DNA of 64,000 nt from an uncultured Gammaproteobacteria bacterium (GCA_964483115.1 CAYZZF010000002.1:5493-69492), one strand, 5' to 3'; shown: positions 30,698 through 56,285, counted from the stretch's first letter. Notes: a model not told the origin generated them from the letters alone. Made by a program: numbers and translations.

Positions 30698-30821
30698 AAA
30701 TTCCAAATTACAAATCTAAAGTAAATTCAAAATTTCAATATCGAAATGTTTTGAATTATGAAAATTTGAAATTAAGTATTATTTAGGATTTGCTGCTTTG
30801 AAATTGGAATTTTTAAGAAAT
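30698..30821 (+). repeat. dispersed repeat copy in the hrcA 5' leader (shared about 75-bp block with the rnj leader)
   Basis: The block tttgaaattaagtattatttaggatttgctgctttgaaattggaattttt closely matches 52288-52340 and the reverse complement of 56145-56200. Confidence 0.6.
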
Positions 30822-31553
30822 ATGTATAACTTAACGCAGAGACAAATTGAGATATTAAAAAGTCTTATAGAAGAATATATAGAAACTGCAGCTCCTGTAG
30901 GTTCTGAAACTTTAGAAAAAAAGTGTAGTATAAGCGCCTCCCCTGCAACTATAAGAAACGAGATGGTAAAACTTACGCAACTTGGTTACCTTCAAAAACC
31001 TCATTCTTCAGCCGGCCGTATGCCTACACCTTCGGGCATGAAATTCTATGTTAATCAACTCATGAAAGAGAAAGAGATTTCTGTGGCTGAGGAAGTAGAT
31101 GTTAGAGATAAGGTATGGGATTTTAGAAATCAGGAGCAAAAACTTTTAAAGGAATTAACAAGATCGCTTGCTGACAAAACAAAGACCTTGGCAATTACTT
31201 CAACCGATGAGGGTGATTTTTTTTGCGCAGGTTATTCTCACATCCTAGACATACCTGAGTTTTTTGATATAGATGTAACAAAAAATCTACTAAGCGTTCT
31301 TGATGAGTTTGACTACTTTAATAATATTTTTTCAAGTATAATTGATGAAGAAGATATCCACATACTTATAGGAGATGAACTTGGGCCAAAACTTAGAGGT
31401 CCATATGGATTTGTTTTTAGACATTACAATACTCCTAAACACTCAACTGGGGAGATTGGAGTAATCGGACCAAACAGACTTGACTATACTTCTGTAGTAC
31501 CAACTGTTCGATATTTTGGTGATTTAATTGAAGAGATTGCAGAAGGATGGTAA
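30822..31553 (+). CDS. hrcA: heat-inducible transcription repressor HrcA (short form)
   Basis: MYNLTQRQIEILKSLIEEYIETAAPVGSETL is an HrcA N-terminal winged HTH. The ATG at 30822 is preferred over the TTG at 30798, which lies inside the repeat. Confidence 0.8.
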   Translation: MYNLTQRQIEILKSLIEEYIETAAPVGSETLEKKCSISASPATIRNEMVKLTQLGYLQKPHSSAGRMPTPSGMKFYVNQLMKEKEISVAEEVDVRDKVWDFRNQEQKLLKELTRSLADKTKTLAITSTDEGDFFCAGYSHILDIPEFFDIDVTKNLLSVLDEFDYFNNIFSSIIDEEDIHILIGDELGPKLRGPYGFVFRHYNTPKHSTGEIGVIGPNRLDYTSVVPTVRYFGDLIEEIAEGW

Positions 31554-31603
31554 TTTAAAATAGAATATAAAATATAAAAATTAAAAAGGACTATTGAAGT
31601 GAG

Positions 31604-32044
31604 ATGGCAAAAAAAATAAAGAAAAATGCTGAAGAAGTTGAAAAAAAAGAACAAGAACTTGAAGATCAATTAAAAAGGATTTTAGCGGATTATCAGAATC
31701 TTGAGAAAAGAGTTGCCCAGGAAAAAGAGGAATTAAAAAAATCGGCAAACAGAGAGCTTATATTGCGGTTTTTGCCAGCACTTGATACACTAATTCTTAC
31801 AGATAAACATACTCAAGACGAGGGATTGAAATTGAGCATCAAACATATCTTTGATACGCTGGAAAAAGAAGGCCTTAAGAAAATCGAGGCAAAAGGACAG
31901 GATTTCAATCCGGAATTTATGGAAGCAGTGCATGTAGTTCAAGGTGAGGAAGGAAAAGTTATAGAAGAATTAAGAACAGGTTATTTTTTAAATGATAAAG
32001 TTTTGCGACCAGCACAGGTGGTTGTCGGACGACAACAAAATTAA
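31604..32044 (+). CDS. grpE: nucleotide exchange factor GrpE
   Basis: Coiled-coil N-terminus, ADYQNLEKR, and a C-terminal beta domain. Confidence 0.9.
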   Translation: MAKKIKKNAEEVEKKEQELEDQLKRILADYQNLEKRVAQEKEELKKSANRELILRFLPALDTLILTDKHTQDEGLKLSIKHIFDTLEKEGLKKIEAKGQDFNPEFMEAVHVVQGEEGKVIEELRTGYFLNDKVLRPAQVVVGRQQN

Positions 32045-32065
32045 AAATTTGACTGAAAGGAGCAT

Positions 32066-33967
32066 ATGGGAAAAATTATTGGAATAGATTTAGGCACAAC
32101 AAATTCATGTGTTGCCGTTATGGAAGGAGGAAGTCCCAAGGTTATTCATAGTGCAGAAGGAAGAAATGTTATACCATCGGTTATTGACCCGATTTCTCAT
32201 GTCGTTGGAGATGTAGCAAAAAGACAGCTTGTTCTTAAGCCTAAGAGCACTATTTTTTCCATAAAGAGGCTCATGGGTAGAAAATTCAAGGATGTATCAG
32301 TGCAGCAGGATATAAAATGGCTTCCATATACTGTAAAAGCTGGGAGAGACGGGATGGCGGTTGTTGAAGTTGATGGACGAACTTTTACTCCTCAGGAAAT
32401 TTCAGCCCAGATTTTGCAAAAAATTAAAAGTGATGCAGAAAGTTATCTAGGTAGCAAAGTTACACAGGCTGTTATTACTGTCCCTGCGTATTTTGACGAT
32501 TCACAGCGTCAAGCAACAAAACAGGCTGGAGAAATATCAGGACTTGAGGTTATGCGTATTATTAATGAGCCGACAGCAGCCGCTCTTGCCTATGGATTGG
32601 ATAAAAAAAATGCTCACACAATTGCTGTCTATGATTTAGGCGGCGGAACATTTGATATTTCAATTTTGGAGCTTGGAGAAGGAGTGTATGAGGTAAAATC
32701 AACAAATGGAGACACGCACTTAGGTGGAGATGATTTTGATCAAAAGATTATCGACTATATTGCAGAAGAGTTTAAGAAAGAGCACGGGGTAGATTTAAGA
32801 CGCGACCCGCAAGCACTGCAAAGACTCAAAGAAGCGGCAGAAAAGGCAAAGATAGAACTATCCACTGCTCAAGAAGCCCAGATTAATCAGCCATTTATTA
32901 CTCAAGGAAAAGAAGGACCACTGCATCTAACTATGACTCTAAGCCGTGCAAAACTTGAACAAATCGTTGATGAGCTTATTGAAAAAACAACAAAACCTGT
33001 TGAACTAGCCCTAAAAGATGCAAAAATTAAAGTCTCTGATGTTGATGAGGTTGTCCTGGTTGGAGGAATGACCAGAATGCCTAAAATTGTTGAAACAGTT
33101 ACTAAGTTCTTTGGTAAAGAGCCGCATAAAGGCGTTAATCCCGACGAAGTAGTAGCAGTTGGCGCGGCAATTCAAGGTGGAGTATTAGGAGGAGAAGTAA
33201 AAGATGTTCTTCTTCTTGATGTTACGCCTTTGACTTTAGGAATCGAGACATTGGGAGGGGTTGCAACCCCGCTTATTTCTAGAAATACAACTATACCTTC
33301 TTCTAAATCTCAAATTTTTTCAACAGCAGCAGATAATCAGACACAGGTTGAAATTAATGTTCTTCAGGGAGAACGTCCTATGGCAGCCGATAATAAATCA
33401 TTAGGCAGATTTATTTTAGACGGAATACCACCTGCCCCTCGCGGCATTCCTCAGATTGAGGTAAGTTTTGATATCGACGCAAATGGAATCTTAAATGTAA
33501 AAGCTCAAGACAAGGCAACTGGAAGAGAACAAAGTATTAAGATTACAGGTTCAACTGGCTTAACAAAAGATGAAATTGAAAAAATGACAAAGGAAGCAGA
33601 AAGGCATGCAAAAGAAGATTTGGAGAAAAAAGATAAGGTTGAGGCCAGAAATGCGGCGGATTCGCTCATCTTTACAGCCGAAAAAACTCTTAAAGAAGCA
33701 GGGAATAAAGCAGATCCGACTTTGAAAAAGGAAGTTGAAGATAAAGTTTCCGAGCTTAAATCAATTCTTGACACAGGCAGTAAAGATGATCTTGAAGCGA
33801 AAACAAAAGACTTATCTGATGCTTTACAAAAAGTAGGTCAGGCAATGTATAGTCAGCAACAGGCAACTTCCGACCAACAACAAACAACTGGAGACGCAGA
33901 GGAGACAAAACAAGAAGAGAAAAAATCCGACAAGGAAGAACCAGTTGAGGGAGAAGTCGTAAATTAA
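32066..33967 (+). CDS. dnaK: chaperone DnaK (Hsp70)
   Basis: [21 protein letters not shown], and full-length Hsp70. Confidence 0.97.
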
Positions 33968-33995
33968 TTCAAAATTCATAATTCAAAATTCAAAA
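33965..33995. repeat. intergenic copy of dispersed repeat (ttcaaaattcataattcaaaattcaaaatt)
   Basis: Its reverse complement is near-identical to the intragenic copy at 3598-3640. Confidence 0.6.
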
Positions 33996-33998
33996 TTG

Positions 33999-34022
33999 GC
34001 CGCGGAGACGCGGTTGTTTGTT
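33999..34022 (+). terminator. hairpin plus U-rich tract between dnaK and dnaJ (attenuating terminator)
   Basis: gccgcg-gaga-cgcggt stem-loop followed by ttgtttgtt. Confidence 0.45.
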
Positions 34023-34037
34023 ATAATATTGTAGCTT

Positions 34038-34934
34038 ATGGCAGAACAGAAAGATTTTTACGAAATTTTAGGCATTTCGAAAAATGCAACAGCCGATGAA
34101 ATAAAAAAGGCTTATAGAAAGCTTGCTCTTTCCTATCATCCTGATCGTAATAAGACTAAAGAAGCTGAGGAAAGATTTAAAGAGATAAATCAAGCTTACG
34201 AAGTTTTATCAGATTCAAAAAAAAGACAGGCTTATGACCAATTTGGGCAGACAGCTTTTACTCAAGGGTTTGGCCAGTCACCTTTTGGAGAAGGTTTTAG
34301 TGGACAGACAAGAACTGGGCGCTACGGACCGTTTACTTATACATACTCAGCTGGGCCGGGCGCTGATGAGGGCTTTGATTTTGGAGGATTTTCTGACCCA
34401 TTTGAAATATTTGAACAGTTTTTTGGTGGAGCTTCACCTTTTGGCTCACAAGCCCGCCAAAGACCAATTTACTCTCTAACAATTGAGTTCATGGAAGCAG
34501 TACATGGAACCACAAAAAAGGTAGTAATTGGTGGGAAAAATCAAACCATAAAAATTCCTAAAGGAGTTGACAATGGGTCAAGAATTCGTTTTGGTGAATA
34601 TGATGTAATTTTGGAGGTGCAACCAGACAGAAGATTTAGAAGAGAAGGTACAGACATAATTTCGGATGTTGAAGTTTCATTTACTAAGGCAGCTTTGGGA
34701 GATACGGTAACGGTTGAGACAATCGATGGACCAGTTAAGCTTCGTATCCCTGTCTCTACACAGCCGGGCACAGTTATACGTTTAAGACAAAAAGGAGTTC
34801 CTTATCTTCGAGGCTCAGGCAGAGGAGATCATTATGTGAGAATAAAAGTTATAATCCCTAAACATCTGACCAGCCACCAAAAAAAACTTCTTGAGGAACT
34901 TGAAAAAGAATCAACTAAAAAAAGCTGGTTTTAA
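34038..34934 (+). CDS. dnaJ: DnaJ-family co-chaperone lacking the Zn-finger domain (type II)
   Basis: J-domain (YHPDRNK) and a G/F-rich region; no CxxCxGxG repeats; C-terminal substrate-binding domains. Confidence 0.85.
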
Positions 34935-34981
34935 GAATTTTCTAATTGTGGTTTTTGAGCAAAATATGCTACGATTAGTAT

Positions 34982-35302
34982 ATGTTACTATCCGGAGTTT
35001 TAGGTGCTACTTCTTGCAGAGTGAATGAAAAACTAACCGATTTTGGGTGTATTCCTAATGACCCCGTTGCTTTTGTTGCCAAATTTTATGGTATTGGACT
35101 TGGATTAATTGGCGGTGTTGCGATACTTTTTATTATCTACGGAGGGTATATTATTCTTGCTTCCCAAGGTGATCCGGTAAAATTGAATACTGGTAAAAGT
35201 TATATATATTATGCGATTGCCGGACTTCTCCTGGCAATTTTTGGATTTGTTTTTGTTCAGGTGATTGTTGTTGACATATTGCACATACCTGGGTTTAAAT
35301 AA
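34982..35302 (+). CDS. small two-helix membrane protein (pilin-like; TrbC/VirB2-like topology)
   Basis: Two long hydrophobic helices (IGLGLIGGVAILFIIYGGYIIL and YIYYAIAGLLLAIFGFVFVQVIVV) separated by a short polar loop. Sits 6 bp upstream of the large membrane protein. Confidence 0.45.
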   Translation: MLLSGVLGATSCRVNEKLTDFGCIPNDPVAFVAKFYGIGLGLIGGVAILFIIYGGYIILASQGDPVKLNTGKSYIYYAIAGLLLAIFGFVFVQVIVVDILHIPGFK

Positions 35303-35308
35303 GAATAT

Positions 35309-37627
35309 ATGATAAAATTTCTGCCCATTCTGCGAAAGATTCTTTTTATTCTTATTGCATTTTTTGTAATAGGACTTTCGCTATTTAGTTTTACTGCAAT
35401 AGCAAAAGCACAGTCAGCCCCAACCCCAACTGGAGTACCTGAAGGTTCCTGGGTAAAAGATCAGGAGGTAACTTTTGTTGGTAAAACTGCTGCCCGGTCA
35501 GGAGAATTTTTAGATTGGACGCTAAAAAATTATGATTGGTCCTCTGTTTCGCCGGGGACAAGCAATCCACTTGCTACATTTTGGGCGACTATTAGAAATA
35601 TTGTTTATGCGTTTTTTATTCTTTTTGTTTTGGTAACAGCGTTTGTAATTATTGTTACTCGAGGAAGAAACATAACAGTGGCCAAATTCATACCCAAACT
35701 TATTATCATAATTCTTTTGGTAACATTTTCTTTTGCATTAGTTCAATTTATCTATCAAGTTACAGATGCAATACAAGGCTTTTTCTTAAAGAGCCCATCT
35801 CCTGATTGTACTTCCATTTGTCAAAAAGATCTCTTTTACTGGGGTTGGAATTATCAAGATTTTGAAGGTTTCCGTTTTATTGATCAAGCCGGTACTTATG
35901 ATGAATCAGCTTTTATAGCTCTTCTCCTTGTTAGACTTACCGCTCTTACCTATTATGTTATGGTTGGAATACTTATACTTAGAAAAATAATACTTTGGTT
36001 TTTTATTATAATATCGCCCATATTTCCTCTTCTTCTTTTGTATTCCCCAATTAGAAATACCGCCAAAATCTGGGTCGGAGAGTTTTTTCGCTGGCTTTTA
36101 TATGCGCCTATATTTGCAATTTTTTTGTCCGGGCTAGTTGTAATCTGGCGCTCACAGACGAACATACCCTTACAGTTTAATCTTACAAATACAAAAGTTA
36201 TCTACCCAACTGCCATAAACATTCTTCTTGGAGGGCCCGGACAAGTATTATCATACGTTTCTCCCGCTCAATCAAATAGCGTAAACAACATTGACACTTT
36301 CGCCCTTTATGTAGTTGCGCTTCTTATGCTTTGGGTCGTTATAATTTTGCCGTTTCTTCTTCTTCAGATTTTTCTTGATTATCTTAACAATTTTTCATTC
36401 GGAGAAAGTGCTATTTTAAAACAGCTCATAGCTGGAGGATCAGCGTTTGTAAATAGAGCTGGTCCTGGACTAACTCCTCCGCCCCCTACGATTCCTGCTG
36501 GTATAGCCCGTGCTCTACCATTTATTCCAGGTAAGGTTGAGATACCCGAGATAAGAGCAACAGAGGCTATTATCAATGCACAAGTCGCAGATATGAGAGG
36601 AATACAGGCAAGTTCAGATATACTTCGTCTAGCTAGTCTAAGCGTTCCTACCATGCGTGATATCGCAAAATATGAAACTGCTCTTTTATCCTCAGACATA
36701 GGTAAGCATCAAGATATAGCAAGATTTCACGAAACATTAGAGGGAATTGCCAATCCAAAAAGGGTGGCAACACCTGCGGAAAGACAAAATTATAATCTTA
36801 TGCAGGGAAGACTAAAACGGGAAGCCCAAAGAGGGGATCCTCTGGCATCCTCCATATTATCCGCTGCCAGTATCGTTTCTAAATCTTCTTTACAAAATAA
36901 ACAAGAGGAAAATGCAAGAGTAGGCAGTATCCTTTCCAGGATGAATAATCTTGCTAGCATAATTTCAACTGAGGAGAAAGAAAGACTAAACGCAATAAAA
37001 TCGTCTCTTATAGAAGCTGCGCAGAAAGGGGATCCTCTGGCAAACTCTATTCTATCTGCGATGAAAGAAGGCAAGACAGAAATAGATGAGAAACTTAAAG
37101 AACAGCTGCTTGAAGCAAAAGAAAGAGGAAGCGCGCTAGCTGCATCAATTTTAGAACAAGCTGGTGTTTCTGTTACTGTACAGACGTTCCCTGTTACAAA
37201 TCGTGTGCAAGCAGTAAGTATAGATGATTACGAAGCGGTAAAGAAAGTCTGGCAAGAAAATTATCAGAAACTTGAGCCGCCAAGAACTATTGAAGGAAAA
37301 CAAAAAAACAGGGAAGAATGGATTATAGGAGACATAGATAGGATTACAGAAACTATTAATCTTCTTACATCGGAAGATGTTCAGAATATCAAAAAGGGCA
37401 TGGAAGAGGTTTCTGCAATACTCCCCTTCCTTCTTATAGGAGGGTTTGCTCAGACAGAAGTTATTGCCTATCTTAAAGCAAAACTTGAAGCTGCAAAATC
37501 AGTTTCCGAAGAAATCAGCAAAAAAGAAGAGGAAGAAGAAACTATGCTTGGAAGAGAGAAGGCTAAAACAGATAAGCCAGCGGAGATGGAAATGAAAGAA
37601 GAAGTTAAAGAAAACCAAAATAATTGA
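35309..37627 (+). CDS. large polytopic membrane protein with signal peptide and C-terminal cytoplasmic repeat/acidic domain; unknown function
   Basis: Signal-like N-terminus and about 8-10 TM helices. The C-terminal region carries a triple GDPLAxSILSA repeat and an EEEEE tail. Confidence 0.55.
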   Translation: MIKFLPILRKILFILIAFFVIGLSLFSFTAIAKAQSAPTPTGVPEGSWVKDQEVTFVGKTAARSGEFLDWTLKNYDWSSVSPGTSNPLATFWATIRNIVYAFFILFVLVTAFVIIVTRGRNITVAKFIPKLIIIILLVTFSFALVQFIYQVTDAIQGFFLKSPSPDCTSICQKDLFYWGWNYQDFEGFRFIDQAGTYDESAFIALLLVRLTALTYYVMVGILILRKIILWFFIIISPIFPLLLLYSPIRNTAKIWVGEFFRWLLYAPIFAIFLSGLVVIWRSQTNIPLQFNLTNTKVIYPTAINILLGGPGQVLSYVSPAQSNSVNNIDTFALYVVALLMLWVVIILPFLLLQIFLDYLNNFSFGESAILKQLIAGGSAFVNRAGPGLTPPPPTIPAGIARALPFIPGKVEIPEIRATEAIINAQVADMRGIQASSDILRLASLSVPTMRDIAKYETALLSSDIGKHQDIARFHETLEGIANPKRVATPAERQNYNLMQGRLKREAQRGDPLASSILSAASIVSKSSLQNKQEENARVGSILSRMNNLASIISTEEKERLNAIKSSLIEAAQKGDPLANSILSAMKEGKTEIDEKLKEQLLEAKERGSALAASILEQAGVSVTVQTFPVTNRVQAVSIDDYEAVKKVWQENYQKLEPPRTIEGKQKNREEWIIGDIDRITETINLLTSEDVQNIKKGMEEVSAILPFLLIGGFAQTEVIAYLKAKLEAAKSVSEEISKKEEEEETMLGREKAKTDKPAEMEMKEEVKENQNN

Positions 37628-42198: not shown

Positions 42199-44580
42199 AT
42201 GATCGGATACGCAAGAATTTATAATTTTTACACAACAAATATTATAAGATTATTAAGATTTGTTATTTTTATTTTTCTTCTATGGAGTACCTATCAATCT
42301 GTTTCTAATAGTTTTTTCCTTTCTGCCTCCTCTCGCATATCAATTTTTCTTCTATCCGTCTTCTTAATACTTGAGGTTTTTTTTCGCTTTAAAATCTCAA
42401 GATTGACTCCCAGAGTTTCGATTTCAGAAAATGAAGGCAAAAATATCTACACATCCTTTACTTTTAAAAGTTTATATGTTTTTTTAGGCAAAACAACATC
42501 AATAATAAAATTACTTCTTAAAGAAAAATCCAGCCTTTTTATTCTTGAAAAATCAGACATCAGGCAAAACGAGGTGTCACTTATCGATATTTCAAAAGAA
42601 GACTTAGGTGCGTATTCCCTTGAGGTTTCAAAAAATCTGAAGGGAAAATTTGTAACTACAATGGATATTTTAGTTTCCTATCTTCTATTAACTGAAGACA
42701 AAACCAAACTCTTGTTTAATAAAAATCTTAAAAAAGAGGAGCTAATGCATATTCTTTACTGGGCTCGCTTAAGATTTTCTGATGAAGAAAATCCAAAACC
42801 TTTTATGATAAATTTTTGGGGGGAAGGAATTGGAGAAGGCATGGTTTCGGGTTGGACTATAGAAACAAAAAAATACATGGTTGATAAAACATCGGAGATT
42901 TTAAGAAAAAGGACAACTCTCTTTGGGAAAGAGTCTGAATATAGACAGATCTTAGAAGCGTTATATCAGCAAAAAAGTGTTATTCTAGTTGGGGAGCAAG
43001 GGGTTGGTAAAGAAGAAATTATTGAAAGCCTTGCTTTTGAAAGTTTTACCGGCAGTTTGAGAGGAAGCCTTTATCATCAGAGGTTTTTTGAGCTTTTGAT
43101 TGATGCGCTTATTGCAGGATCTCAAAATCAAGGAGAACTTGAATCCCGTCTTGATGCAATTATCGCAGAGCTTGCCCACTCTGGCAATATAATTGTTTAT
43201 ATCCCATCTTTTGAAAATATCTTGGGATCTTCCTCTTTCCATATCGACCTTTCAGGAGTCCTTGCTCCGTATCTTGAAAGAGGAGTAATTCGCATAATTG
43301 CAACTGTTAGCCTTGGAGCATATAAAAAATTTGTTGAGGCGCGAAAAACACTGATGAATGCGTTCCAAGTTGTAAAACTTGAAGAGCCTGACAAGGATTT
43401 GACTCTACAGATGTTATTTAGGAAAACTCTAGATATTGAGGGAATTTACAGCGTTGATTTGACTTACAAATCTGTTATCGCGGCAGCTACGTACGGAAAA
43501 CAATATTTACCAGGAAGTTATTTGCCTGGCGCGGCTTTTGAGCTTCTTAAAGACACCGCCAATATGGTATTTCTTAGAGGTAAAAAAATTGTTGAAGAGG
43601 AGGATGTTATTGAAAAAGTAAAGACCCAAACAAAAATTGCAATTGGAAAGCCAAAAGGAAAAGAGAAAGAATTACTGCTCCATCTTGAGAATGAGATGCA
43701 TAAGCGAATTATTGATCAGGAAGAAGCTGTATCAGAGGTCTCAGAAGCTATGCGGCGGCTTCGAACAGGCATTACCACTCTTAATAAACCTATTTCATTT
43801 TTATTTTTGGGACCTACAGGGGTTGGAAAAACAGAAACAGCAAAAACTCTAGCCGCGCTTTACTTTGGAGGAGAAAACAAAATGATAAGGCTTGATATGA
43901 GTGAATATTCGGGGGATGACGCAGCCAGAAGACTATTGGGATCTTTACCGGGTGAAGAAGAAGAAAGAGGAGAGCTTACAGATAAAGTCTATGATAATCC
44001 GTTTTCATTAATTCTTCTTGATGAATTTGAGAAGGCAAATATTAATGTACTTAATTTATTCTTGCAGGTTTTGGATGACGGGCGACTAACTGATAATAAA
44101 GGAAGAACCGTATCTTTTGTCAATGCTATTATTATTGCAACCTCAAATGCCGCATCAGAATTTATTAGAGAGGAGATCGGAAAAGGTGCTACTGTAAATA
44201 AAAAATTTCAAGAAAAACTTCTCGAGTTTTTACAAACAAAAGGAATTTTTAAGCCAGAGCTTCTAAATAGGTTTGACGGAATAATTGTTTTTAAACCATT
44301 AGGGCAAGGAGAGGTGGTTCAAGTTATAAAGCTTTTGCTTTCAGAATTATCTAGAAAAATGCAAGAGCAGGATGTTGCTATCATTTTCGATGACAAAATA
44401 ATAGAAAAAATTATTAACGAAGGTTTTGATGAACAGTTTGGCGCCCGCCCCCTGCGCCGATATATTCAGGACAACATCGAAGATTTAATTGCCCAAAAAA
44501 TCTTAAAGGACGAGATAAAACGCGGGGACAAAATTTCCGTCTCAACTGATGGAAATCAATTTCTAATTTCTAAATCCTAA
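42199..44580 (+). CDS. membrane-anchored Clp-like AAA+ ATPase with degenerate D1 and intact D2
   Basis: N-terminal 2 TM (LLRFVIFIFLLW, ISIFLLSVFLILEVFF). D1 Walker A is degenerate (GEQGVGKEE, no T/S after the Lys), and D1 Walker B is replaced (YIPSFENIL). D2 is canonical: LGPTGVGKTETAK, LLDEFEKA, GARPLRRYIQ. Confidence 0.75.
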   Translation: MIGYARIYNFYTTNIIRLLRFVIFIFLLWSTYQSVSNSFFLSASSRISIFLLSVFLILEVFFRFKISRLTPRVSISENEGKNIYTSFTFKSLYVFLGKTTSIIKLLLKEKSSLFILEKSDIRQNEVSLIDISKEDLGAYSLEVSKNLKGKFVTTMDILVSYLLLTEDKTKLLFNKNLKKEELMHILYWARLRFSDEENPKPFMINFWGEGIGEGMVSGWTIETKKYMVDKTSEILRKRTTLFGKESEYRQILEALYQQKSVILVGEQGVGKEEIIESLAFESFTGSLRGSLYHQRFFELLIDALIAGSQNQGELESRLDAIIAELAHSGNIIVYIPSFENILGSSSFHIDLSGVLAPYLERGVIRIIATVSLGAYKKFVEARKTLMNAFQVVKLEEPDKDLTLQMLFRKTLDIEGIYSVDLTYKSVIAAATYGKQYLPGSYLPGAAFELLKDTANMVFLRGKKIVEEEDVIEKVKTQTKIAIGKPKGKEKELLLHLENEMHKRIIDQEEAVSEVSEAMRRLRTGITTLNKPISFLFLGPTGVGKTETAKTLAALYFGGENKMIRLDMSEYSGDDAARRLLGSLPGEEEERGELTDKVYDNPFSLILLDEFEKANINVLNLFLQVLDDGRLTDNKGRTVSFVNAIIIATSNAASEFIREEIGKGATVNKKFQEKLLEFLQTKGIFKPELLNRFDGIIVFKPLGQGEVVQVIKLLLSELSRKMQEQDVAIIFDDKIIEKIINEGFDEQFGARPLRRYIQDNIEDLIAQKILKDEIKRGDKISVSTDGNQFLISKS

Positions 44581-44706
44581 ATTCCAAATAAATTCCAAAT
44601 CCAAAATGCCAAAACCTAAAACAAATAGTATTGAAATTCCTGGACTGTTTGATTTCAGCCATTCCGCCCCAAAAGCTCCTTGTAAAAATTAAAACCACAA
44701 AAATCG

Positions 44707-44735
44707 TTGCTACAAAATAGCAAATTTGGTATACT
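44707..44735 (+). promoter_or_regulatory. sigma70-like promoter of nusA-infB operon (TTGCTA-17-TATACT)
   Basis: ttgcta at 44707-44712, a 17-nt spacer, and tatact at 44730-44735, 9 nt before the nusA ATG region. Confidence 0.55.
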
Positions 44736-44744
44736 GTTTCAATT

Positions 44745-45785
44745 ATGCCAGCACTGCAGCGAAGTGAATTTGCACTTGCCTTAAATCAGGTCGCCAACGA
44801 GCGTGGCGTTGATATTTCTGTGGTTTTGGAAACGGTTAAAAATGCGATAATTGCCGCTTACAAGAAAGATCATCCTGGAATAAATGTTGAGGATTATTCG
44901 GCAGCTTTGGATAAAAATACCGGCGAAACAAAAATATTTTACAAAGATAAAGATGTTACCCCTCCAGGATTTGGTAGGATTGCGGCTCAAACCGCCAAGC
45001 AGGTAATCTTGCAAAAAATTAGAGAAAAAGAAAGAGAGGCAATCCTCTCAGATTATAAAACAAGAGTTGGAACTGTTATTAATGGTATGATTTTACGATT
45101 TGCTGGGCTAAATATAATCGTTGATATCGGAAAGACAGAAGCAATCATGCCACAATTTGAGCAAATACAAAATGAGAAATATTATCCTAATCAAAGACTA
45201 GCTGTTTACCTTTTGGAGATAAAAGAAGGCCTAAAGGGAGAAGAAGTAATAGTCTCAAGAGTAAATAATGGGCTCTTGGAGGGTCTGTTTAAGAGAGAGG
45301 TTCCGGAAATTGCGCAAGGATCTGTTGAGATTAAAAATATAGCCAGAGAGCCTGGAAGCAGAAGTAAAATAGCAGTTTATTCTGCTCAGAGCGGTATTGA
45401 TCCAGTTGGAAGTTGCGTTGGGCAAAAAGGCGTGAGAGTTCAAGCAATAATTCAGGAGTTTGGAGGACTTGAAAAAATTGACATCATTCAATGGCAGGAG
45501 GATCTAAAAGATTATATAGCGCAAGCATTGTCCCCTGCCAAAAATGTTAAAGTGGAACTAGATGAGGAGGAAAAAACTGCCCGCGTAACTGTTCCAAATG
45601 ATGAACTTTCACTCGCCATTGGGAAAGATGGACAGAATGTTCGGCTTGCCTCAAAGCTTACAGGGTATAGGATTGAGATAGAAGGAGAAGAGACAGATGA
45701 AGATACAAAAGATAAAAATGAAGAAAATGAAAGAGACATTATTGAAAAAAATAAAGCTAAGGCTAAATCAAAAGATGAAAAATAA
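44745..45785 (+). CDS. nusA: transcription termination/antitermination factor NusA
   Basis: N-terminal domain, S1 and two KH domains (GSCVGQKGVRVQAI); K/E-rich tail. Confidence 0.9.
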   Translation: MPALQRSEFALALNQVANERGVDISVVLETVKNAIIAAYKKDHPGINVEDYSAALDKNTGETKIFYKDKDVTPPGFGRIAAQTAKQVILQKIREKEREAILSDYKTRVGTVINGMILRFAGLNIIVDIGKTEAIMPQFEQIQNEKYYPNQRLAVYLLEIKEGLKGEEVIVSRVNNGLLEGLFKREVPEIAQGSVEIKNIAREPGSRSKIAVYSAQSGIDPVGSCVGQKGVRVQAIIQEFGGLEKIDIIQWQEDLKDYIAQALSPAKNVKVELDEEEKTARVTVPNDELSLAIGKDGQNVRLASKLTGYRIEIEGEETDEDTKDKNEENERDIIEKNKAKAKSKDEK

Positions 45786-45927
45786 ATTACAATACCAAGA
45801 TATCAAATTACAAATAAATTCAAATAATCAGGAAACAAAATCCAAAATTTATGTTTAAAACACTTGGAATTTCGGATTTAGGATTTGTTTGGAGTTTAGA
45901 TATTAGAGTTTGGAATCTTAATTTATT

Positions 45928-47436: not shown

Positions 47437-47447
47437 AAATAATTCTT

Positions 47448-48434
47448 ATGGATAGAAGAACGTCTGAACAAATACGAGATTTACTGGAAGTTAGCAATAA
47501 GATTGGAATTGCAGTTGGCAAAAACTCAGGAATTGATGAATTAGCAGGGGCACTTGCGCTTTATCTGGCTCTTCTTGAAAGAGGCAAGAATGTATCAATT
47601 GCTTGCCCAACTGACCCTCTGGTTGAACATACTGTGCTTGTTGGGATTGATAGAGTAAAGAAAAATTTTGATGGTGCAACAGGAGATATGGTAGTTTCTT
47701 TTCCCTACAAAGAGGGCGATATAGAAAAAATCTCTTATACACTTGAGAATGGACTTTTAAATATTATAGTTAAGGGCGGAGAAGAAGGACTTTCATTTAA
47801 CGAGAATGATGTTATTTTTAAAAGGTCCGAGGGTAATCCAGAGCTTCTTTTTGTTGTAGGCACTTCGAAATTGTCTGATCTTGATAAAATATTTGATCCC
47901 CATGCTCTTAGAGATACTAAGGTTATCAATATAGATAATAAGCGCGATAATCAGGGATTTGGAGACATAGTTTTGGTTTCTTCTAATTTCTCATCGGTAT
48001 CCGAAGGAATTACAGATCTTTTAATACTTCTTGATATTTCAATAGATATTGATATAGCACAAAATCTTTTATTAGGAATAGAAAATGCTACGAATAACTT
48101 TCAAGGTCCCAATACGAGTCCGGTTGCTTTTGAGATGGCAGCTGCCCTTATGAAAAAAGGAGCCAGAAGAACAGGAACAAGTTTTAGAAGACAGCAATCG
48201 GTGCCGCTTGAAGAAGTTTCTTCTATTTTTTCTCCTAAAGATTCTAATATTCTTAGTCCAATTGACAAAGATGAGAAAAGAAATTCATCTTTAGATAAAC
48301 AGGCCACAAAAGATCTATCTGCCGCCCGCCTGCCGGGACAGGGCAGACCCGCTTCGCAGCGAGGTGAGCAACGTAAAAACCCTCCAGTTGATTGGCTAAC
48401 CCCAAAGATTTATAAAGGCTCAACAAATATTTAA
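47448..48434 (+). CDS. DHH/DHHA1-family (NrnA-like) protein with degenerate catalytic motifs and disordered tail
   Basis: Overall NrnA-like layout, but the DHH motif position reads IDNK and no GGGH motif is seen. In the infB operon it occupies the slot usually held by rbfA/truB. Confidence 0.45.
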   Translation: MDRRTSEQIRDLLEVSNKIGIAVGKNSGIDELAGALALYLALLERGKNVSIACPTDPLVEHTVLVGIDRVKKNFDGATGDMVVSFPYKEGDIEKISYTLENGLLNIIVKGGEEGLSFNENDVIFKRSEGNPELLFVVGTSKLSDLDKIFDPHALRDTKVINIDNKRDNQGFGDIVLVSSNFSSVSEGITDLLILLDISIDIDIAQNLLLGIENATNNFQGPNTSPVAFEMAAALMKKGARRTGTSFRRQQSVPLEEVSSIFSPKDSNILSPIDKDEKRNSSLDKQATKDLSAARLPGQGRPASQRGEQRKNPPVDWLTPKIYKGSTNI

Positions 48435-48514
48435 CTTTTTTCAGTCTTCCCTTCGGACATAAAATAAAATTAGAGTATTGAGGGCGCAAGGAAAACTTGC
48501 TATAATTAAAATCT

Positions 48515-48784
48515 ATGCCACTGACATCAACGCAAAAACAAGAAATTATAAAAAAATTTCAGACAGGAAAAGGAGACACTGGAAGTCCAGAAGTTCAGAT
48601 TGCTCTCTTAACAAGCCGCATTGACAAATTAACAGAGCACCTTAGAGAACATCAGCATGATGTGCACTCAAGACGCGGGCTTCTTTCGATGATTGCAAAA
48701 AGGAGAAGACTTATAAACTTTCTTAGAGGTGTTGATAAGACTCGTTATGCTTCTGTTGCAAAGAATCTTGGTCTTAAGGATTAA
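48515..48784 (+). CDS. rpsO: 30S ribosomal protein S15
   Basis: [35 protein letters not shown]. Confidence 0.95.
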
Positions 48785-51067: not shown

Positions 51068-51131
51068 CAAGTCTATTTATATAGATTGTTGTTTGTTGTA
51101 TAGAATATTTCTCTTGTAGTATTATAGATAT

Positions 51132-52199
51132 ATGGATTCTTTTACTTCTTTGGAAAGCCAGATACAAAAGCTTGAGGAAAAAGTTAAATCAATAGAGCTT
51201 CCTTCGGATTTGCTGGAAAAAATAGAAGGGATGATAAATTTGCTTCGAGCAAGTCTTAAAAGTGGAAATGCCTCATTTATAAATTATGAAAGTGTTTCAG
51301 CCTATGTTAATTGGATTGTCTCTTTGCCTTTTGCTAAAGAAACTAAAGATATTCTAGATCTTCATCGGGCAAAAGAGATTTTGGATAAAAATCATTACGG
51401 ACTTTCGGGTGTCAAAAATAGAATTCTGGAGTATTTATCGGCAATTATTTTAAGTATGCAAAACAACACATCAGGAGGAGTGATACGAGCACCGATCCTT
51501 TGCTTAATTGGTCTTGTTGGAACTGGTAAGACAACACTTGCTTACTCTATTGCAGAGGCTCTGGGACGGAGGTTTGAGAGAATACCTTTTGGAGGAATGG
51601 GAGATGCAAGGGCACTACGCGGTCAGTCTCGCGCAATGTCTGATGCAGAACCAGGAGCTATCATTAAAAAATTAGTTAATGCCCAAAGTAAAAATGCTGT
51701 TATTCTTCTTGATGAACTAGATAGAGTGGCAGAGTCTGCTAGAGCTGACATTATGGGAGTTTTGGTGGAGCTTTTGGACCCCGAACAAAATAAAGCATTT
51801 ACAGACCATTATATTGACTATCCATTTGATTTGTCTCATGTTTTGTTTGTTACAACAGCAAATAATTCAACTAACATCTCAACAGCAGTATTAGACAGAC
51901 TTGAGATAATACAAATGCCTTCTTATTCAGATGAGGAGAAAACGTCCATTGCAAGAAGTTATCTATTCCCGAAAATTCGTACTCAGACAGGATTATCAGA
52001 ACAACAAATACTTATTGATGATGCTGTTTGGCCTTTGGTAATAAGACCTTTAGGTTTTGACTCGGGAATAAGAAGCCTTGAGAGGACAATTGAGGGGATT
52101 TGCAGAAAAACCGCAAGGTTTATTGTCGAAGGAAAAGTGCCCCAGGGAGCATCTGTCCACATAACAAGCGAGAATTTTAAACAATTTTTACTAACCTAA
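51132..52199 (+). CDS. Lon-like AAA+ ATPase module without N-terminal LON domain and without S16 protease domain
   Basis: HYGLSGVKNRILEYL; LCLIGLVGTGKTTLAYSIAEALGRRF; LLDELDR; VELLDPEQNKAFTDHYIDYPFDLSHVLFVTTANN; SGIRSLERTIEGICRK. The ORF ends before any protease-domain sequence. Confidence 0.8.
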   Translation: MDSFTSLESQIQKLEEKVKSIELPSDLLEKIEGMINLLRASLKSGNASFINYESVSAYVNWIVSLPFAKETKDILDLHRAKEILDKNHYGLSGVKNRILEYLSAIILSMQNNTSGGVIRAPILCLIGLVGTGKTTLAYSIAEALGRRFERIPFGGMGDARALRGQSRAMSDAEPGAIIKKLVNAQSKNAVILLDELDRVAESARADIMGVLVELLDPEQNKAFTDHYIDYPFDLSHVLFVTTANNSTNISTAVLDRLEIIQMPSYSDEEKTSIARSYLFPKIRTQTGLSEQQILIDDAVWPLVIRPLGFDSGIRSLERTIEGICRKTARFIVEGKVPQGASVHITSENFKQFLLT

Positions 52200-52352
52200 T
52201 GAAAATCACAGACATCAAATCACTCGCTTCGCAACGAGGCAAGCAAATCACAAATAAATTAAAAGCTACAATATCAAAAAGTCTTGAATTTTGAAGATTT
52301 GAAATTAAGTATTATTTGAAATTTGCTGCTTTTGGTTTGAAATTTAGATTCT
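52200..52352 (+). repeat. dispersed repeat element in the rnj leader; left arm of an inverted-repeat pair
   Basis: The 39-bp core aaatcactcgcttcgcaacgaggcaagcaaatcacaaat (52217-52255) is an exact inverted match to 56229-56267. The block attatttgaaatttgctgcttt is shared with 30776-30800 and 56160-56185 (reverse complement). Confidence 0.75.
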
Positions 52353-54023
52353 ATGGATAATCAACTATCATTTATTCCCTTAGGGGGAGTTGGAGATGTT
52401 ACAAAAAACATGTATCTTTATGAATATAAAGATGAGATTTTAATTGTTGATTGCGGATTTGGGTTTGCAGATGAGACAATGCCTGGAGTAGATCTTCTAA
52501 TTCCAGATATTTCTTACCTTAAAAAAACCTGCCTGCCGGAAGGCAAGGCTAACAAAAAGATCATCGCTATGATTTTGACCCACGGACATGAGGATCACAT
52601 TGGTGCGATTCCTTATGTACTTGCGAACCTTCCTAAATTCCCAATATTTGGCTCGAAACTAACAGCCGCTCTTGCCAATGAGAAACTTAAGGAGTTTGGT
52701 ATAAAGAACAATGTTCAGACCATTAACTTTAATCAAATACTTAATTTGGGAAGTTTTCAAGTGTCTTTTATAAGAGTTACTCATTCAATAATTGATTCAG
52801 CCCATATTCTTATTAAGACACCGGTTGGTAATTTTTATCATGGTAGTGACTTTAAGTTTGATCTTACGCCAGTTGATGGAAAACCATCAGAGCTTTCAAA
52901 GATTGCTAAGGCAGGAGAAGAGGGCGTCGTCTGTCTTTTTTCTGATTGTTTAGGAGCAGAAAGACCAGGACATTCACCTTCTGAACGGGCAATAACCCAG
53001 AGTTTTGAAGAAGAATTTAAAAAGACCAAAGGTAAAATATTTGTAACCACATATTCTTCAAATATTTCAAGATTAAATCAGGCAATTGATGTGGGAATAA
53101 AGCTTGGTCGAAAAGTTTGCTTTGTGGGAAGATCTCTTCTTAAATCTCGCGATATCGGAAAGAGGCTTGCCTACATGAATTACCCATCTTCTTTGGAAAT
53201 TGCGCCGCAGGATGTAAAAAAAATGAATCCAGCGCAGGTTCTTGTGCTTGTTGCAGGAAGTCAAGGGCAGGAGGATTCAGCTCTTGTAAGAGTTGCAAAC
53301 GGAGAAGACAGAGATATTAGGATTGCAAAAGATGACGTTGTTATTTTTTCGGCCGATCCCATTCCTGGTAATGAAACTAGCATTAATTCTTTAATCGATA
53401 CAATAGCAAGACAGGGAGCAAAAGTGGTTTATTCAGAAATTACCGATGAATTTCATGTTTCGGGTCATGGTTCTCAAAATGATCTAAAACTTCTTATTGA
53501 TCTTGTCCGTCCCAAATTTCTTTTTCCAATCGGCGGAACATATAGACAAATGGTTGCATATCGATATTTAGCAAAAGAGCTGGGTTTTGGAGAAAGGGAA
53601 GTGATATTATCTGATGATGGGCAAGAAATAAAATTTGATAAAAATACAATATCACTTGGAAAGAAAATTTCGCTTTCAAATATATTTGTAGATGAATTAA
53701 CAGGAGAAGCAATCGAGAATTATGTAGTATTTGACAGGGTTAAGATTGCAAAAGAAGGACTTATCATTGTGATAGTCGAAATAGATTCAAACACCGGGCA
53801 TCTCGCTTCTTCTCCTGATATATTAACAAAAGGATTTAAATACGAAAACATAAAAAATTTGGCAAAAAGAGTTCAGAGAGCCCTTGAAGAATCTATTGGA
53901 AAAAGAAGAGAAAAAGTTATTAATTGGGTTTATTATAAAAAGATTGTAGAGCGGGTTACAGAGCAAATTCTTTTTAAAGAAGGTAGACAGCCTCTTATAG
54001 TACCGGTTATCCTTGAAGTATAG
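52353..54023 (+). CDS. rnj: ribonuclease J
   Basis: LGGVGDVTKNMYLYEY, THGHEDHIGAIPY (beta-lactamase HxHxDH), beta-CASP and C-terminal domain. Confidence 0.9.
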   Translation: MDNQLSFIPLGGVGDVTKNMYLYEYKDEILIVDCGFGFADETMPGVDLLIPDISYLKKTCLPEGKANKKIIAMILTHGHEDHIGAIPYVLANLPKFPIFGSKLTAALANEKLKEFGIKNNVQTINFNQILNLGSFQVSFIRVTHSIIDSAHILIKTPVGNFYHGSDFKFDLTPVDGKPSELSKIAKAGEEGVVCLFSDCLGAERPGHSPSERAITQSFEEEFKKTKGKIFVTTYSSNISRLNQAIDVGIKLGRKVCFVGRSLLKSRDIGKRLAYMNYPSSLEIAPQDVKKMNPAQVLVLVAGSQGQEDSALVRVANGEDRDIRIAKDDVVIFSADPIPGNETSINSLIDTIARQGAKVVYSEITDEFHVSGHGSQNDLKLLIDLVRPKFLFPIGGTYRQMVAYRYLAKELGFGEREVILSDDGQEIKFDKNTISLGKKISLSNIFVDELTGEAIENYVVFDRVKIAKEGLIIVIVEIDSNTGHLASSPDILTKGFKYENIKNLAKRVQRALEESIGKRREKVINWVYYKKIVERVTEQILFKEGRQPLIVPVILEV

Positions 54024-54040
54024 GTATATAATAAATTAGT

Positions 54041-56143
54041 ATGGCGAGAAGGCATTATAGAAGACGCAAGTTTAAGCTCAAACTTAAGAAAAGTACGGTT
54101 TATTCAATCTTTTCTTTTGGGCTAATTTTAATAGGTTTAATACTTCTTCTATCTTTTACCAAAAGTCAACCTTCATTTATTGTCTTGAGTAATCTTTTAC
54201 AAAAATATTTTGGTGCGGTTTCTTTTCTTTTGCCATTAGAGCTTATTTTTTTAGGATTTTTGTTTTTAAGACTTAAGTTTTTTTTGTCTCGTACCAACGT
54301 CTCGGTTGGTTTTTTCCTCCTTTTTTTATCTTTGGATGCTTTAATAAAAGGTGGAAAGTTTGGGGGATACCTTTTTAAGATATTGGCTGATATTCTTACA
54401 AATCTGGGAGCAAATATAGTTTATTTAGCAGGTGCATTTGTTGGTTTCATTGTTTTGTTTGATACTTCGATTGACGAGCTTTTGGATTTTTTCGTTTCTC
54501 TGTGGAAAATAATTTTGAAATTTTATCCAACCAAACTTCTCGCCTTTTTTAGAACAAAGAAAGCTACCGGCTTTAAAAATAGGCCAATAACCATAAGAGG
54601 AGGATTAAAAGAATCTCCAAGCTTAGCGAGTCGCGAGATAACAGTTGCCGCACAAGCTAAAAAAGACTCTATACTTCTTTCCGATAAGCTAGTTAGCAAT
54701 CCTTTAGCAACTGGAGTAGTGTGGGAGTATCCACCCTTATCTCTTCTTTCTGATTCATCGACGCAAAAGGCAGACAGAGGAGATATAAAAAGGGTAGCCA
54801 GTGTTATTGAAAATACGTTGCAGAGTTTTGGTATCGAAGCAAAAGTTGTTGAAGTAAATTTGGGTCCTGCTGTTACCCAATATGCACTTGAGATTGCTCT
54901 TGGAACAAAAGTTTCAAAAATTACTTCTCTTTCAAATGATTTAGCTCTTGCAACAGAAGCACCAACTGGACAGATAAGAATTGAGGCTCCTATTCCAGGA
55001 AGGAATTTGGTCGGGATAGAAATCCCCAATAGGAGTTTGGAAATTGTCGCACTTAAGACAATGCTTGAGTCAGATACAATGAGAAAAAGCAAGTCAAAGC
55101 TTACTGTGTCTTTGGGTCTTGATGTTTCGGGAAACCCCATTGTTGCTGATGTTAGTAGGATGCCCCATGTTTTGATTGCTGGAACAACGGGATCTGGAAA
55201 ATCAGTTCTTATAAATTCTTTCATAGCGTCTCTTTTATTTCGAGCCGCACCTTTTGAGGTAAAATTGATTCTTATTGATCCTAAAAGGGTAGAGCTTACC
55301 GGATACAATGGTATACCTCATCTTATGACACCTGTTATTGTTGAGATTGAAAAAATATTATCAGCTCTGAAGTGGGCAATGGATGAGATGGACCGACGTT
55401 ATAAAACCTTTGCCGAAAGAGGAGTTAGGAATATAGATGCTTATAATGAACTTTCAGGTTTTCAAGCCCTTCCTTATATTGTTATTCTAATAGACGAATT
55501 GGCAGACTTAATGGCATTTGCTCCGGTCGAGGTTGAAGATGCAATAGCCCGTCTTGCTCAGATGGCGCGTGCCACAGGAATTCATCTAGTTGTTTCCACT
55601 CAAAGACCATCAGTTGATGTTATAACAGGACTTATTAAAGCAAACATCCCTTGCCGTATTGCTTTTAATGTTTCATCAATGGTTGATTCAAGAGTTATAA
55701 TTGATATGCCAGGGTCTGAAAAACTTTTGGGCCGGGGCGATATGCTTTATATCCCGCCCGATCAAGCAAAACCAACCCGTATACAGGGAGCATATGTTTC
55801 GGACAGAGAAGTCAAAAAGTTGGTTGACTATCTCAAATCAAAAGGCCCGCCAGTTGAATACACAGAAGAGGTTACCTCAAAGCCGCTTGTGACCCGAGGA
55901 GGAGGATTTTTTGGAGCTGGGCGCGACCCACTTTTTGAAGAAGCAATAAGGATTGTTTGTCAACATGACAGAGCATCTGCATCTCTTCTTCAACGTAGGC
56001 TTTCAATCGGTTATTCAAGAGCTGCCCGGATTTTGGATCAGCTTGAAGAAGCAGAAATTGTAGGACACGCAGAAGGCTCAAAGCCGCGAGATGTGTTAAT
56101 TAGAAATGCAGAAGAACTAATAAGCAGCTTGCAGGAACAATAA
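54041..56143 (+). CDS. ftsK: DNA translocase FtsK/SpoIIIE
   Basis: N-terminal TM helices, PHVLIAGTTGSGKS, and a C-terminal gamma winged-helix. Confidence 0.9.
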   Translation: MARRHYRRRKFKLKLKKSTVYSIFSFGLILIGLILLLSFTKSQPSFIVLSNLLQKYFGAVSFLLPLELIFLGFLFLRLKFFLSRTNVSVGFFLLFLSLDALIKGGKFGGYLFKILADILTNLGANIVYLAGAFVGFIVLFDTSIDELLDFFVSLWKIILKFYPTKLLAFFRTKKATGFKNRPITIRGGLKESPSLASREITVAAQAKKDSILLSDKLVSNPLATGVVWEYPPLSLLSDSSTQKADRGDIKRVASVIENTLQSFGIEAKVVEVNLGPAVTQYALEIALGTKVSKITSLSNDLALATEAPTGQIRIEAPIPGRNLVGIEIPNRSLEIVALKTMLESDTMRKSKSKLTVSLGLDVSGNPIVADVSRMPHVLIAGTTGSGKSVLINSFIASLLFRAAPFEVKLILIDPKRVELTGYNGIPHLMTPVIVEIEKILSALKWAMDEMDRRYKTFAERGVRNIDAYNELSGFQALPYIVILIDELADLMAFAPVEVEDAIARLAQMARATGIHLVVSTQRPSVDVITGLIKANIPCRIAFNVSSMVDSRVIIDMPGSEKLLGRGDMLYIPPDQAKPTRIQGAYVSDREVKKLVDYLKSKGPPVEYTEEVTSKPLVTRGGGFFGAGRDPLFEEAIRIVCQHDRASASLLQRRLSIGYSRAARILDQLEEAEIVGHAEGSKPRDVLIRNAEELISSLQEQ

Positions 56144-56285
56144 AAATAAAATTCCAAATTCAAAGCAGCAAATTTCAAATAATAATTAAATTCAGATTTT
56201 TAAGATCTAAAACATTTGAATTTTGAATTTGTGATTTGCTTGCCTCGTTGCGAAGCGAGTGATTTTGGATTTGTAATTCAATGCT
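56144..56285 (-). repeat. dispersed repeat element, inverted copy (right arm of the inverted-repeat pair flanking rnj-ftsK)
   Basis: Reverse complement of the 39-bp core plus the ttatttgaaatttgctgctttgaatttggaatttt block. Confidence 0.75.

Follow-up and report, generated by a model that had tools for sequence, protein, structure and literature searches.

The 64-kb stretch of DNA analysed here (CAYZZF010000002.1, positions 5493-69492; hereafter the window) carries three homologous copies of one imperfect palindrome of ~125-150 nt, located in the hrcA leader, in the rnj leader and after ftsK. On balance we think it probable that these copies represent a small non-coding element specific to their lineage, and that the other AT-rich sites resembling them are not members of this family and belong instead to a broader trait, the formation of tandem arrays of 7-nt units (heptamer arrays). 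Because the best homologues of the RNase J, FAD oxidoreductase and HrcA proteins carry source names of Candidatus Levybacteria or Patescibacteria, the window is, as judged from these proteins, DNA of Candidatus Levybacteria (Patescibacteria, or Candidate Phyla Radiation, CPR). The relatives used for comparison were loci coded L025, L026 and L029-L035; the RNase J of L026 (GCA_023379505.1) is 77% identical to that of the window. The source genome itself was covered by the window and a further 1.6 kb to its left, reached through L036.

In pairwise blastn comparison the three copies aligned over 90-150 nt at 74-80% identity (E 1e-20 to 1e-24; 1e-23 for copy 1 against copy 2), and repeat finding on the window also recovered all three as direct and inverted repeats, with copy 3 in the orientation opposite to copies 1 and 2. 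A profile built from the three copies themselves and run with nhmmer (the family profile) returned the E values given in Table 1. In copy 1 the portion homologous to the family spans 30681-30815, and a separate small GC hairpin, CCCCGATTAAATCGGG, is present at its 5′ edge (30670-30685). The arms of the copies are runs of 7-nt units (e.g. ATTGCAA ACAACAA ATTCCAA ATTACAA ... TTTTGAA TTATGAA AATTTGA), one arm containing CAAATTC/AAATCAC-type units and the other, inverted, GAATTTG/TTTTGAA-type units. Since each copy contains two inverted heptamer runs, either strand can fold into a long imperfect AT-rich hairpin. The folding energies predicted for either strand of the three copies ranged from -21 to -35 kcal/mol, and the plus strand of copy 3 reached -34.7 kcal/mol (z -3.15). 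An initial annotation of the window had described a dispersed palindromic AT-rich repeat with TTTTGAA-type arms and a GC core. At the hrcA, rnj and inverted ftsK sites this repeat is real and its three long copies lie where they had been placed, as the blastn and nhmmer scores bear out, and the RNA folding that the annotation had suggested produced long imperfect hairpins.

Table 1. Features of the window and, in the last three rows, spacer lengths in the window and in related loci
Feature	Position	Strand	Description
Palindrome copy 1	30668-30821	+	Separates CIRCE from the hrcA ATG (30822); nhmmer E 1e-31
Palindrome copy 2	52200-52352	+	Entire spacer from the AAA/Lon-lid stop (52199) to the rnj ATG (52353); nhmmer E 3e-44
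Palindrome copy 3	56144-56285	-	Inverted; occupies ftsK stop (56143) to HTH_25 gene ATG (56286); nhmmer E 3e-37
GC core of copy 2	52217-52255	+	39-nt exact inverted match to the core of copy 3
GC core of copy 3	56227-56265	-	Exact k-mer match to the core of copy 2
GC-core relative	48346-48370	+	21/25 nt; in frame in hypothetical protein 47448-48434 (hyp328)
hrcA promoter and CIRCE	30628-30667	+	TTGACA-17-TATATT overlapping TTAGCAGTC-N9-TACTGCTAA
FAD oxidoreductase array	10263-10317	-	TTTTGAA x8 on the + strand; ancestral coding segment
Membrane-protein array	30301-30334	-	GAAAGTT x5 in a 111-aa protein; conserved in orthologues
DUF2298 array pair	3557-3649	-	Hypervariable loop; + strand AAATCGC x4.4, TTTTGAA x6.6 (3605-3649)
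Heptamer array	20931-20965	+	CAAAATT x5; between groEL stop codon and intrinsic-terminator hairpin
Heptamer array	33966-33997	+	AATTCAA x4.6; between dnaK stop codon and terminator hairpin
Heptamer array	44557-44613	+	CAAATTC x8.6; spans the stop codon of a ClpB-like gene
nusA-infB spacer	45786-45927	+	Inverted heptamer arrays forming a hairpin, z -2.47
AAA to rnj spacer			153 nt in window; 6 nt in L026; 20 nt in L034
ftsK to HTH spacer			142 nt in window; 15 nt in L026
CIRCE to hrcA ATG			155 nt in window; 2 nt in L030; 22 nt in L031; ~30 nt in L032

The GC-rich part of the core comprises 22 nt, CTCGCTTCGCAACGAGGCAAGC, placed between AAATCA direct repeats within an AAATCAC heptamer array. On the plus strand the core of copy 3 reads CTCGTT-GCGA-AGCGAG followed by TGATTTTGG, a T-run, and is terminator-like. 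Both k-mer matches and alignment showed copy 1 to be without the 22 GC-rich nt; the 39-bp core that had been ascribed to the repeat is thus exact in copies 2 and 3 but not a feature of the hrcA copy. The diverged relative of the core in hyp328 (blastn E 0.02; p < 1/300 against local-alignment shuffles) sits in a GC-rich 14-amino-acid (aa) in-frame insertion, RLPGQGRPASQRGE (48318-48375), in the C-terminal tail of the protein, and this insertion was absent from all five Levybacteria orthologues compared. By this comparison, repeat material has entered reading frames of this genome, but elsewhere than at the three coding sites named in the initial annotation: in hyp328, and in lepA with the 36-nt patch described below. 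A 4031-nt Logan contig that stops exactly 30 nt (k-1) into the core was considered as a sign of further copies and rejected, because the known pair of inverted 39-nt cores accounts for the break. A GC-rich island (61% GC) is also present at 3965-4074 in the minus-strand DUF2298 gene (2397-4721); it encodes RGATRLDGLPTARSEKSERALAGGKFGAGPRA, which most homologues are without. As a candidate relative of the GC core or of the hyp328 island it proved unrelated (shuffle p 0.4-0.7).

In related Levybacteria the spacers that hold the three copies measure only 2-30 nt. On the strength of this comparison, the copies are lineage-specific gains that fill minimal spacers just upstream of start codons. The synteny of the rnj neighbourhood is kept in five other Levybacteria loci, and the hrcA promoter and CIRCE operator are conserved in L030-L032. 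Homologous copies at non-orthologous sites that are empty in relatives (L026, L030, L031, L032 and L034) are what is expected of miniature inverted-repeat transposable elements (MITEs).

Several observations weigh against such an element. Comparison of filled and empty sites at the three junctions revealed neither a consistent target-site duplication nor sharp terminal inverted repeats (TIRs); the ends are roughly inverted (AAATTCCAAAT / ATTTGGAATTT), the whole element being palindromic. Pfam searches of 40 window proteins found no transposase, Y1_Tnp included, and hence no partner for the element. Because target-site duplication, sharp TIR and partner transposase were all not found, we infer mobility from presence and absence alone. 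At two of the three sites L025 has AT-rich arrays that are unrelated to the copies, so these spacers may be array-prone, and gene conversion instead of transposition could account for part of the similarity between copies 2 and 3. All three copies abut start codons, as a selected cis-regulatory leader also would. With z-scores of -1.4 to -3.2 the folds stand out only modestly, and RNAalifold of the three copies gave a weak consensus of -9 kcal/mol, with a covariation term of +0.81 and no convincing covariation. Finally, only three copies are visible in the 64-kb window and in exact-pattern scans. The best conserved 23-mer, TATTATTTNNNATTTGCTGCTTT, had 13 matches in 185,579 species-representative genomes and 10 in JGI metagenomes, which extended over only ~23-40 nt and were chance matches in unrelated taxa, and exact scans of IMG/VR returned 0 matches for the 23-mer and 0 for the GC core.

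Two further observations concern mobility. Copies 2 and 3 form inverted repeats around a 3.8-kb rnj-ftsK segment (52200-56285), a layout that is composite-transposon-like or inversion-prone; no inversion of this segment was seen in the gene order of relatives. The sole candidate for a hairpin-mobilising enzyme in any locus examined is a Y1_Tnp gene (IS200/IS605 or REP-associated tyrosine transposase, RAYT, type; 217 aa) in the distant Levybacteria locus L035 (17382-18035).

The origin we propose for the three copies would involve two layers. The first would be a lineage-wide propensity for heptamer arrays, often paired into hairpins in spacers. In the second, one ~140-nt palindrome would have been assembled from such arrays, which are probably the raw material of palindromes of this kind, and would have been copied to at least three spacers, with a 22-nt GC mini-hairpin nested in two of the copies between AAATCA direct repeats. 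The spread may have taken place by a copy-and-paste or conversion process, as in MITE-like, repetitive extragenic palindromic (REP) or short tandemly repeated repetitive (STRR)-like elements, and the copies may persist because compact operon spacers tolerate them. Transcribed in the hrcA leader and in the AAA-rnj-ftsK-HTH polycistron, they would add a stable hairpin, which could serve as a processing site or exonuclease barrier, or do nothing.

The first layer was assessed with Tandem Repeats Finder. The window contained 24 period-7 arrays compared to 2.8-3.5 (maximum 8) in Markov-1, -3 and -5 shuffles, and showed no excess over shuffles at periods 5, 6 and 8. The intergenic 6% of the window held 9 of the 24 arrays. 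In nine other Levybacteria loci (147.6 kb), 30 period-7 arrays were found compared to 5.6 in shuffles, and 10 period-14 arrays compared to 1.1. Loci of unrelated taxa (23 loci, 173.7 kb) contained 11 period-7 arrays, a count that stands without a shuffle expectation. Exact runs of at least 10 matches occurred at lags 7 and 14, with a single run each at lags 9, 11, 12 and 15 and none at lags 4-6, 8, 10 and 13. Taken at face value, these counts make heptamer arrays a lineage-wide trait, 5-8 fold above expectation, in spacers and in tolerant protein loops. In the relatives these operon spacers likewise hold inverted arrays, but of other heptamers: AACCTAA / TTAGGTT between AAA and rnj in L033, TTAGC.. 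/ GCTAA.. units at the same place in L035, CATGGTT / AACCATG between ftsK and HTH in L035, and AAAGTTC / GAACTTT between pnp and AAA in L034. The heptamers were also considered as a DNA-uptake sequence, which we rejected because the unit sequence varies between sites.

A possible though doubtful explanation of the whole pattern is an independent Levybacteria process, akin to those behind STRRs and small dispersed repeats (SDRs), that would make heptamer arrays, pair them into hairpins, fill spacers, nest GC mini-hairpins and overwrite protein loops. The overwriting would entail little or no change in protein length, and candidates for it are FemAB, a lepA loop, the hyp328 insertion and the FAD-oxidoreductase array. 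The FemAB gene of L029 (19020-19100) holds an in-frame palindromic array of AAATCAC x4 followed by TTGGAAT-type units; against the solved FemX structure 6snr it shows no net insertion, with a single 1-residue gap in the solved chain. The genome of the window has the same FemAB array (L036 1-60), and a Logan contig of this genome ends inside it. In lepA, positions 15996-16031 match the groES-groEL spacer (19205-19240) in inverted orientation with 92% identity over 36 nt (blastn E 2e-9), the encoded loop, LNYTLNAIPYQ, exceeds that of the L029 orthologue by 4 aa, and the motif AAACGCTATAC of this patch (heptamer ATAGCGT) recurs in the DUF2298 gene (3160-3182). The lepA/spacer and FemAB cases indicate that, in this genome, spacers and coding loops have short repeat patches in common. 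If true, an array-generating process of this kind would imply that two very distant phyla share a dedicated mechanism, enzymatic or by conversion.

That the three copies are instead a selected cis-acting RNA, a leader or intercistronic hairpin recruited in front of hrcA, rnj and the HTH_25 gene as an RNase III/RNase J processing site, an mRNA stabiliser or a heat-labile AU-rich thermometer, seems to us unlikely. Their placement speaks for it, as all three copies end 10-25 nt short of a start codon; one belongs to the leader of the operon for the heat-shock repressor, and another precedes the gene for RNase J itself. Long AU-rich hairpins are predicted, three genomes conserve a hairpin of similar type between nusA and infB, and the STRR hairpins of cyanobacteria have been proposed to influence transcript stability (PMC2670836). 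However, copy 3 is opposite in orientation relative to its downstream gene, and the relatives do with spacers of 2-30 nt. The sense-strand fold of copies 1 and 2 is weak (z ~-1.7), covariation gives no support, and Rfam scans of the copies returned no covariance-model match, the E values all being noise (E > 0.3).

Quite unlikely, in our judgement, is a small RNA gene of ~75-90 nt in each copy, read from the T/G-rich strand, starting from a promoter-like block (TTCAAA-16-AATAAT) and ending at the GC hairpin and a U-run, a transcript that would lie cis-antisense to the leaders of hrcA and rnj. In copies 1 and 3 the promoter-like match does fall within the best conserved AT-rich block of the family (TATTATTT..ATTTGCTGCTTT), the GC hairpin with its GCGA loop and subsequent T-run scores as terminator-like on this strand, and the T/G-rich strand folds better in copies 1 and 3 (z -3.0 and -3.15). 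Yet the promoter match is weak (9/12, with a first base other than T) and of a kind that shuffles produce ~1 per 500 nt at 35% GC; promoter and terminator scans of the three copies yielded no convincing outward promoter. Copy 2 is without the -35 match, copy 1 is without the core hairpin and U-run, and no Rfam family corresponds.

The initial annotation had counted at least eight related copies. Three are borne out, and the remaining listed sites are short period-7 tandem arrays as found by Tandem Repeats Finder. Against the family profile, 10255-10318, 20931-20965, 33965-33995, 30295-30337 and 44575-44640 all gave E > 1, the DUF2298 tract (3554-3618) gave E 0.05-0.09 and the nusA-infB spacer gave E ~0.008. 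The last spacer and 44575-44640 had been listed as AT-rich tracts of similar flavour; the spacer consists of inverted heptamer arrays, and at 44575-44640 there is a heptamer array outside the family. The sequence matches cited as links between sites exist but are shorter. A 22-bp exact match had been given at 10271-10292; the actual exact inverted match comprises 20 nt and is shifted, joining 10290-10309 to 20944-20963; in the link between 3603-3630 and 33966-33995, the exact part is just 18 nt (3605-3622 and 33978-33995). Such 18-20 nt matches are only modestly above chance, because Markov-3 and -5 shuffles give ~1 pair of shared 18-mers per window (maximum 6), and they are explained by common TTTTGAA heptamer arrays.

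The nusA-infB arrays are conserved at the orthologous place in L025 (3059-3203; profile E 3e-4), and L026 (3702-3795) keeps only its right arm, without the left. Across the three genomes this spacer is far better conserved than other spacers, and its right arm consists of GGA-containing heptamers (GGATTTG, TTTGGAG etc.) directly before the infB start. RNAalifold of the three nusA-infB spacers found the sequence kept and just one compensatory pair, which does not support a conserved structure. The array downstream of dnaK is not present in the relatives, in which other sequence occupies the site. Downstream of dnaK in L030 (4121-4255) and L031 (8136-8260) there is a conserved element of ~85 nt, tcgctcggaactaaattttttcttggac...ttcctcgctta, which may be a small spacer element or RNA; the window and L032 are without it.

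Three of the sites had been read as in-frame insertions inside coding sequences, as in Rickettsia palindromic elements (RPEs). The FAD-oxidoreductase orthologues are equal in length (424-428 aa), and the tract at aa 214-235 (VSKIKFQKSKIKIGAQNSKIEKNEF) aligns without gaps to 22 of them (e.g. VKELKSQNSKVKIIIQNSKVSDYDF). In the L029 orthologue a TCAAAAG x7 array occupies the same codons in the same register (10650-10698). The gap-free alignment and the shared array show this tract to be ancestral and not an insertion. The membrane-protein array is likewise ancestral, since it is kept at the same place in three relatives (L030 843-874, L031 4786-4809, L032 4772-4803). In DUF2298, the sense strand carries TCAAAAA-type units and then GCGATTT-type units, in a loop that differs in both length and sequence across 24 homologues and in which the L029 orthologue has TTTCAAA x10. 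This tract appears to be a resident array in a tolerant loop and is not demonstrable as a new copy of the element: the variable loop and the weak profile similarity fit an in-frame copy, but the orthologue holds an array too. The ancestral origin that the initial annotation had named as its own counter-case therefore applies to two of the three intragenic sites.

These alignments leave a single RPE-like family of at least eight copies, three of them in frame in DUF2298, the FAD oxidoreductase and the small membrane protein, very improbable. The sites do have TTTTGAA-type units and the 18-20 nt exact matches in common; the palindromic DUF2298 tract occupies a variable loop and bears a weak resemblance to the family (E 0.05); and in-frame repeat material exists elsewhere in the lineage (hyp328 48346-48370, the lepA loop, FemAB in L029 and L036). 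Nevertheless, the FAD segment is gap-free and ancestral, the membrane-protein array is conserved in three relatives, five sites score E > 1 and alignment to FemX reveals no net insertion at the FemAB array. An in-frame insert that adds a lineage-specific peptide, which defines RPEs, was found in none of the FAD, membrane-protein and DUF2298 tracts.

We give almost no credence to the view that nothing here repeats beyond chance in low-complexity AT-rich DNA, an outcome the initial annotation had itself put forward: the five sites at E > 1 and the ~1 common 18-mer per shuffled window do place the weak matches at chance level, but not the three long copies (E 1e-20 to 3e-44, with the 39-nt exact GC-rich match) or the 5-8 fold period-7 excess, which is specific to periods 7 and 14.

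We compared the three-copy palindrome and the arrays with known repeat systems. Cyanobacterial STRRs are 7-bp tandem repeats in intergenic spacers, capable of forming hairpins (e.g. in hupS-hupL) and of unknown function, a role in transcript stability having been proposed for them (PMC2670836). The 7-nt arrays of the window resemble them in both defining respects, being in significant excess and often intergenic with hairpin potential, and inverted arrays occur in spacers of the window, L025, L033, L034 and L035. In contrast to STRRs, the units here are AT-rich and vary by site (TTTTGAA, CAAATTC, AAATCAC, GAAAGTT, ATAGCGT), the host belongs to the CPR and is not a heterocystous cyanobacterium, and arrays also occur in coding loops. 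The STRR1-3 units contain GC (CCCCAGT, TTGGTCA, CAACAGT), and none of them was seen among the window arrays. Because their units are AT-rich and variable and their host is a member of the Levybacteria, we regard these arrays as an analogue of STRRs and not as a member.

The SDRs of Nostoc, as Elhai and colleagues reportedly described them in 2008, are mobile hairpins of 21-27 nt that often lie inside heptamer repeats or mini-transposons. By that description, the 22-nt GC hairpin nested in the AAATCAC array of two copies is reminiscent of them. Unlike the Nostoc repeats, the core has two copies and one diverged relative here, and its mobility is deduced from element presence and absence together with one lineage-specific in-frame insertion.

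In being non-coding palindromes of 100-150 nt that sit in spacers in either orientation, the copies are like Correia/NEMIS in Neisseria, ERIC/IRU in enterobacteria and RUP/BOX in Streptococcus; like the Correia, ERIC and RUP types, they would be co-transcribed with neighbouring genes, and RNA hairpins are possible. They differ from MITE-like repeats in that no TA-type duplication, defined TIR or matching insertion sequence (IS) or transposase was found in the window, that the arms are heptamer arrays and that three copies are seen. Size, palindromic nature and AT-richness are shared with RPEs, but no ~140-nt copy is inserted in an open reading frame (ORF), of the three intragenic copies that had been proposed two are ancestral, and the host lineage is unrelated. 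With REP, BIME and REPIN sequences the copies have in common that they are hairpin-based, non-autonomous and intergenic, and the distant L035 has a Y1_Tnp gene. REPs, however, are short GC-rich palindromes (20-40 nt) that number from tens to hundreds per genome, usually form inverted doublets and are mobilised by RAYT (Y1) proteins; here there is one GC mini-hairpin per copy, with 2-3 copies in 64 kb, and no RAYT was found in the window, so that the copies do not qualify as REPs or REPINs. Full-text searches found no literature linking Patescibacteria or CPR with REP-like or palindromic elements; the single paper that they returned naming both CPR and miniature inverted-repeat elements concerns diversity-generating retroelements.

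Genomes of CPR/Patescibacteria are small and dense, and their non-coding repeats are little known. Here hairpin repeats of ~140 nt have been gained by a Levybacteria lineage where relatives have spacers of just 2-30 nt, one of these gains lying between CIRCE and hrcA, and 7-nt arrays persist within coding loops. The question of why heptamer repeats arise, as asked for the cyanobacterial STRRs, can thus be put to a second system that is remote from them in phylogeny. There are practical consequences as well. Assemblies break at the repeats, as Logan contigs do on entering the GC core and inside the AAATCAC array of FemAB, and gene callers run ORFs through them, as in the 268-aa HrcA call in L030.

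The window has a GC content of ~35%. Its genes include those for TIM, LytR, DUF2298, FAD oxidoreductase, PilO, S20, MurJ, LepA, GroES/EL and MetRS; HrcA-GrpE-DnaK-DnaJ, two ClpB-like ATPases, NusA, IF-2, S15 and PNPase; and the AAA/Lon-lid protein, RNase J, FtsK, the HTH_25 protein, YceG and a sortase, among others. ARAGORN found no tRNA in the window, and no Rfam family reached its gathering score there. In many of the genes a TATAAT-like box stands only ~6-12 nt ahead of the ATG and a Shine-Dalgarno sequence is lacking (e.g. at 34015-34040, 44718-44747, 48490-48517 and 15795-15820), which suggests leaderless or near-leaderless mRNAs; hrcA of the relatives likewise starts 2-30 nt past CIRCE. 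Two long non-coding stretches, 28028-28595 (568 nt) and 56916-57547 (632 nt), are probably decayed pseudogenes; intact genes stand at these places in relatives, one encoding 204 aa in L031 and one encoding a methyltransferase of 260 aa in L026. A 51-nt direct repeat (7831-7881 and 9474-9524; 88% identity, with an exact stretch of 31 nt) is found close to the 5′ ends of the adjacent genes PMT_2 (6357-8057) and hyp541 (8054-9679) and probably reflects paralogous N-termini of the two proteins.

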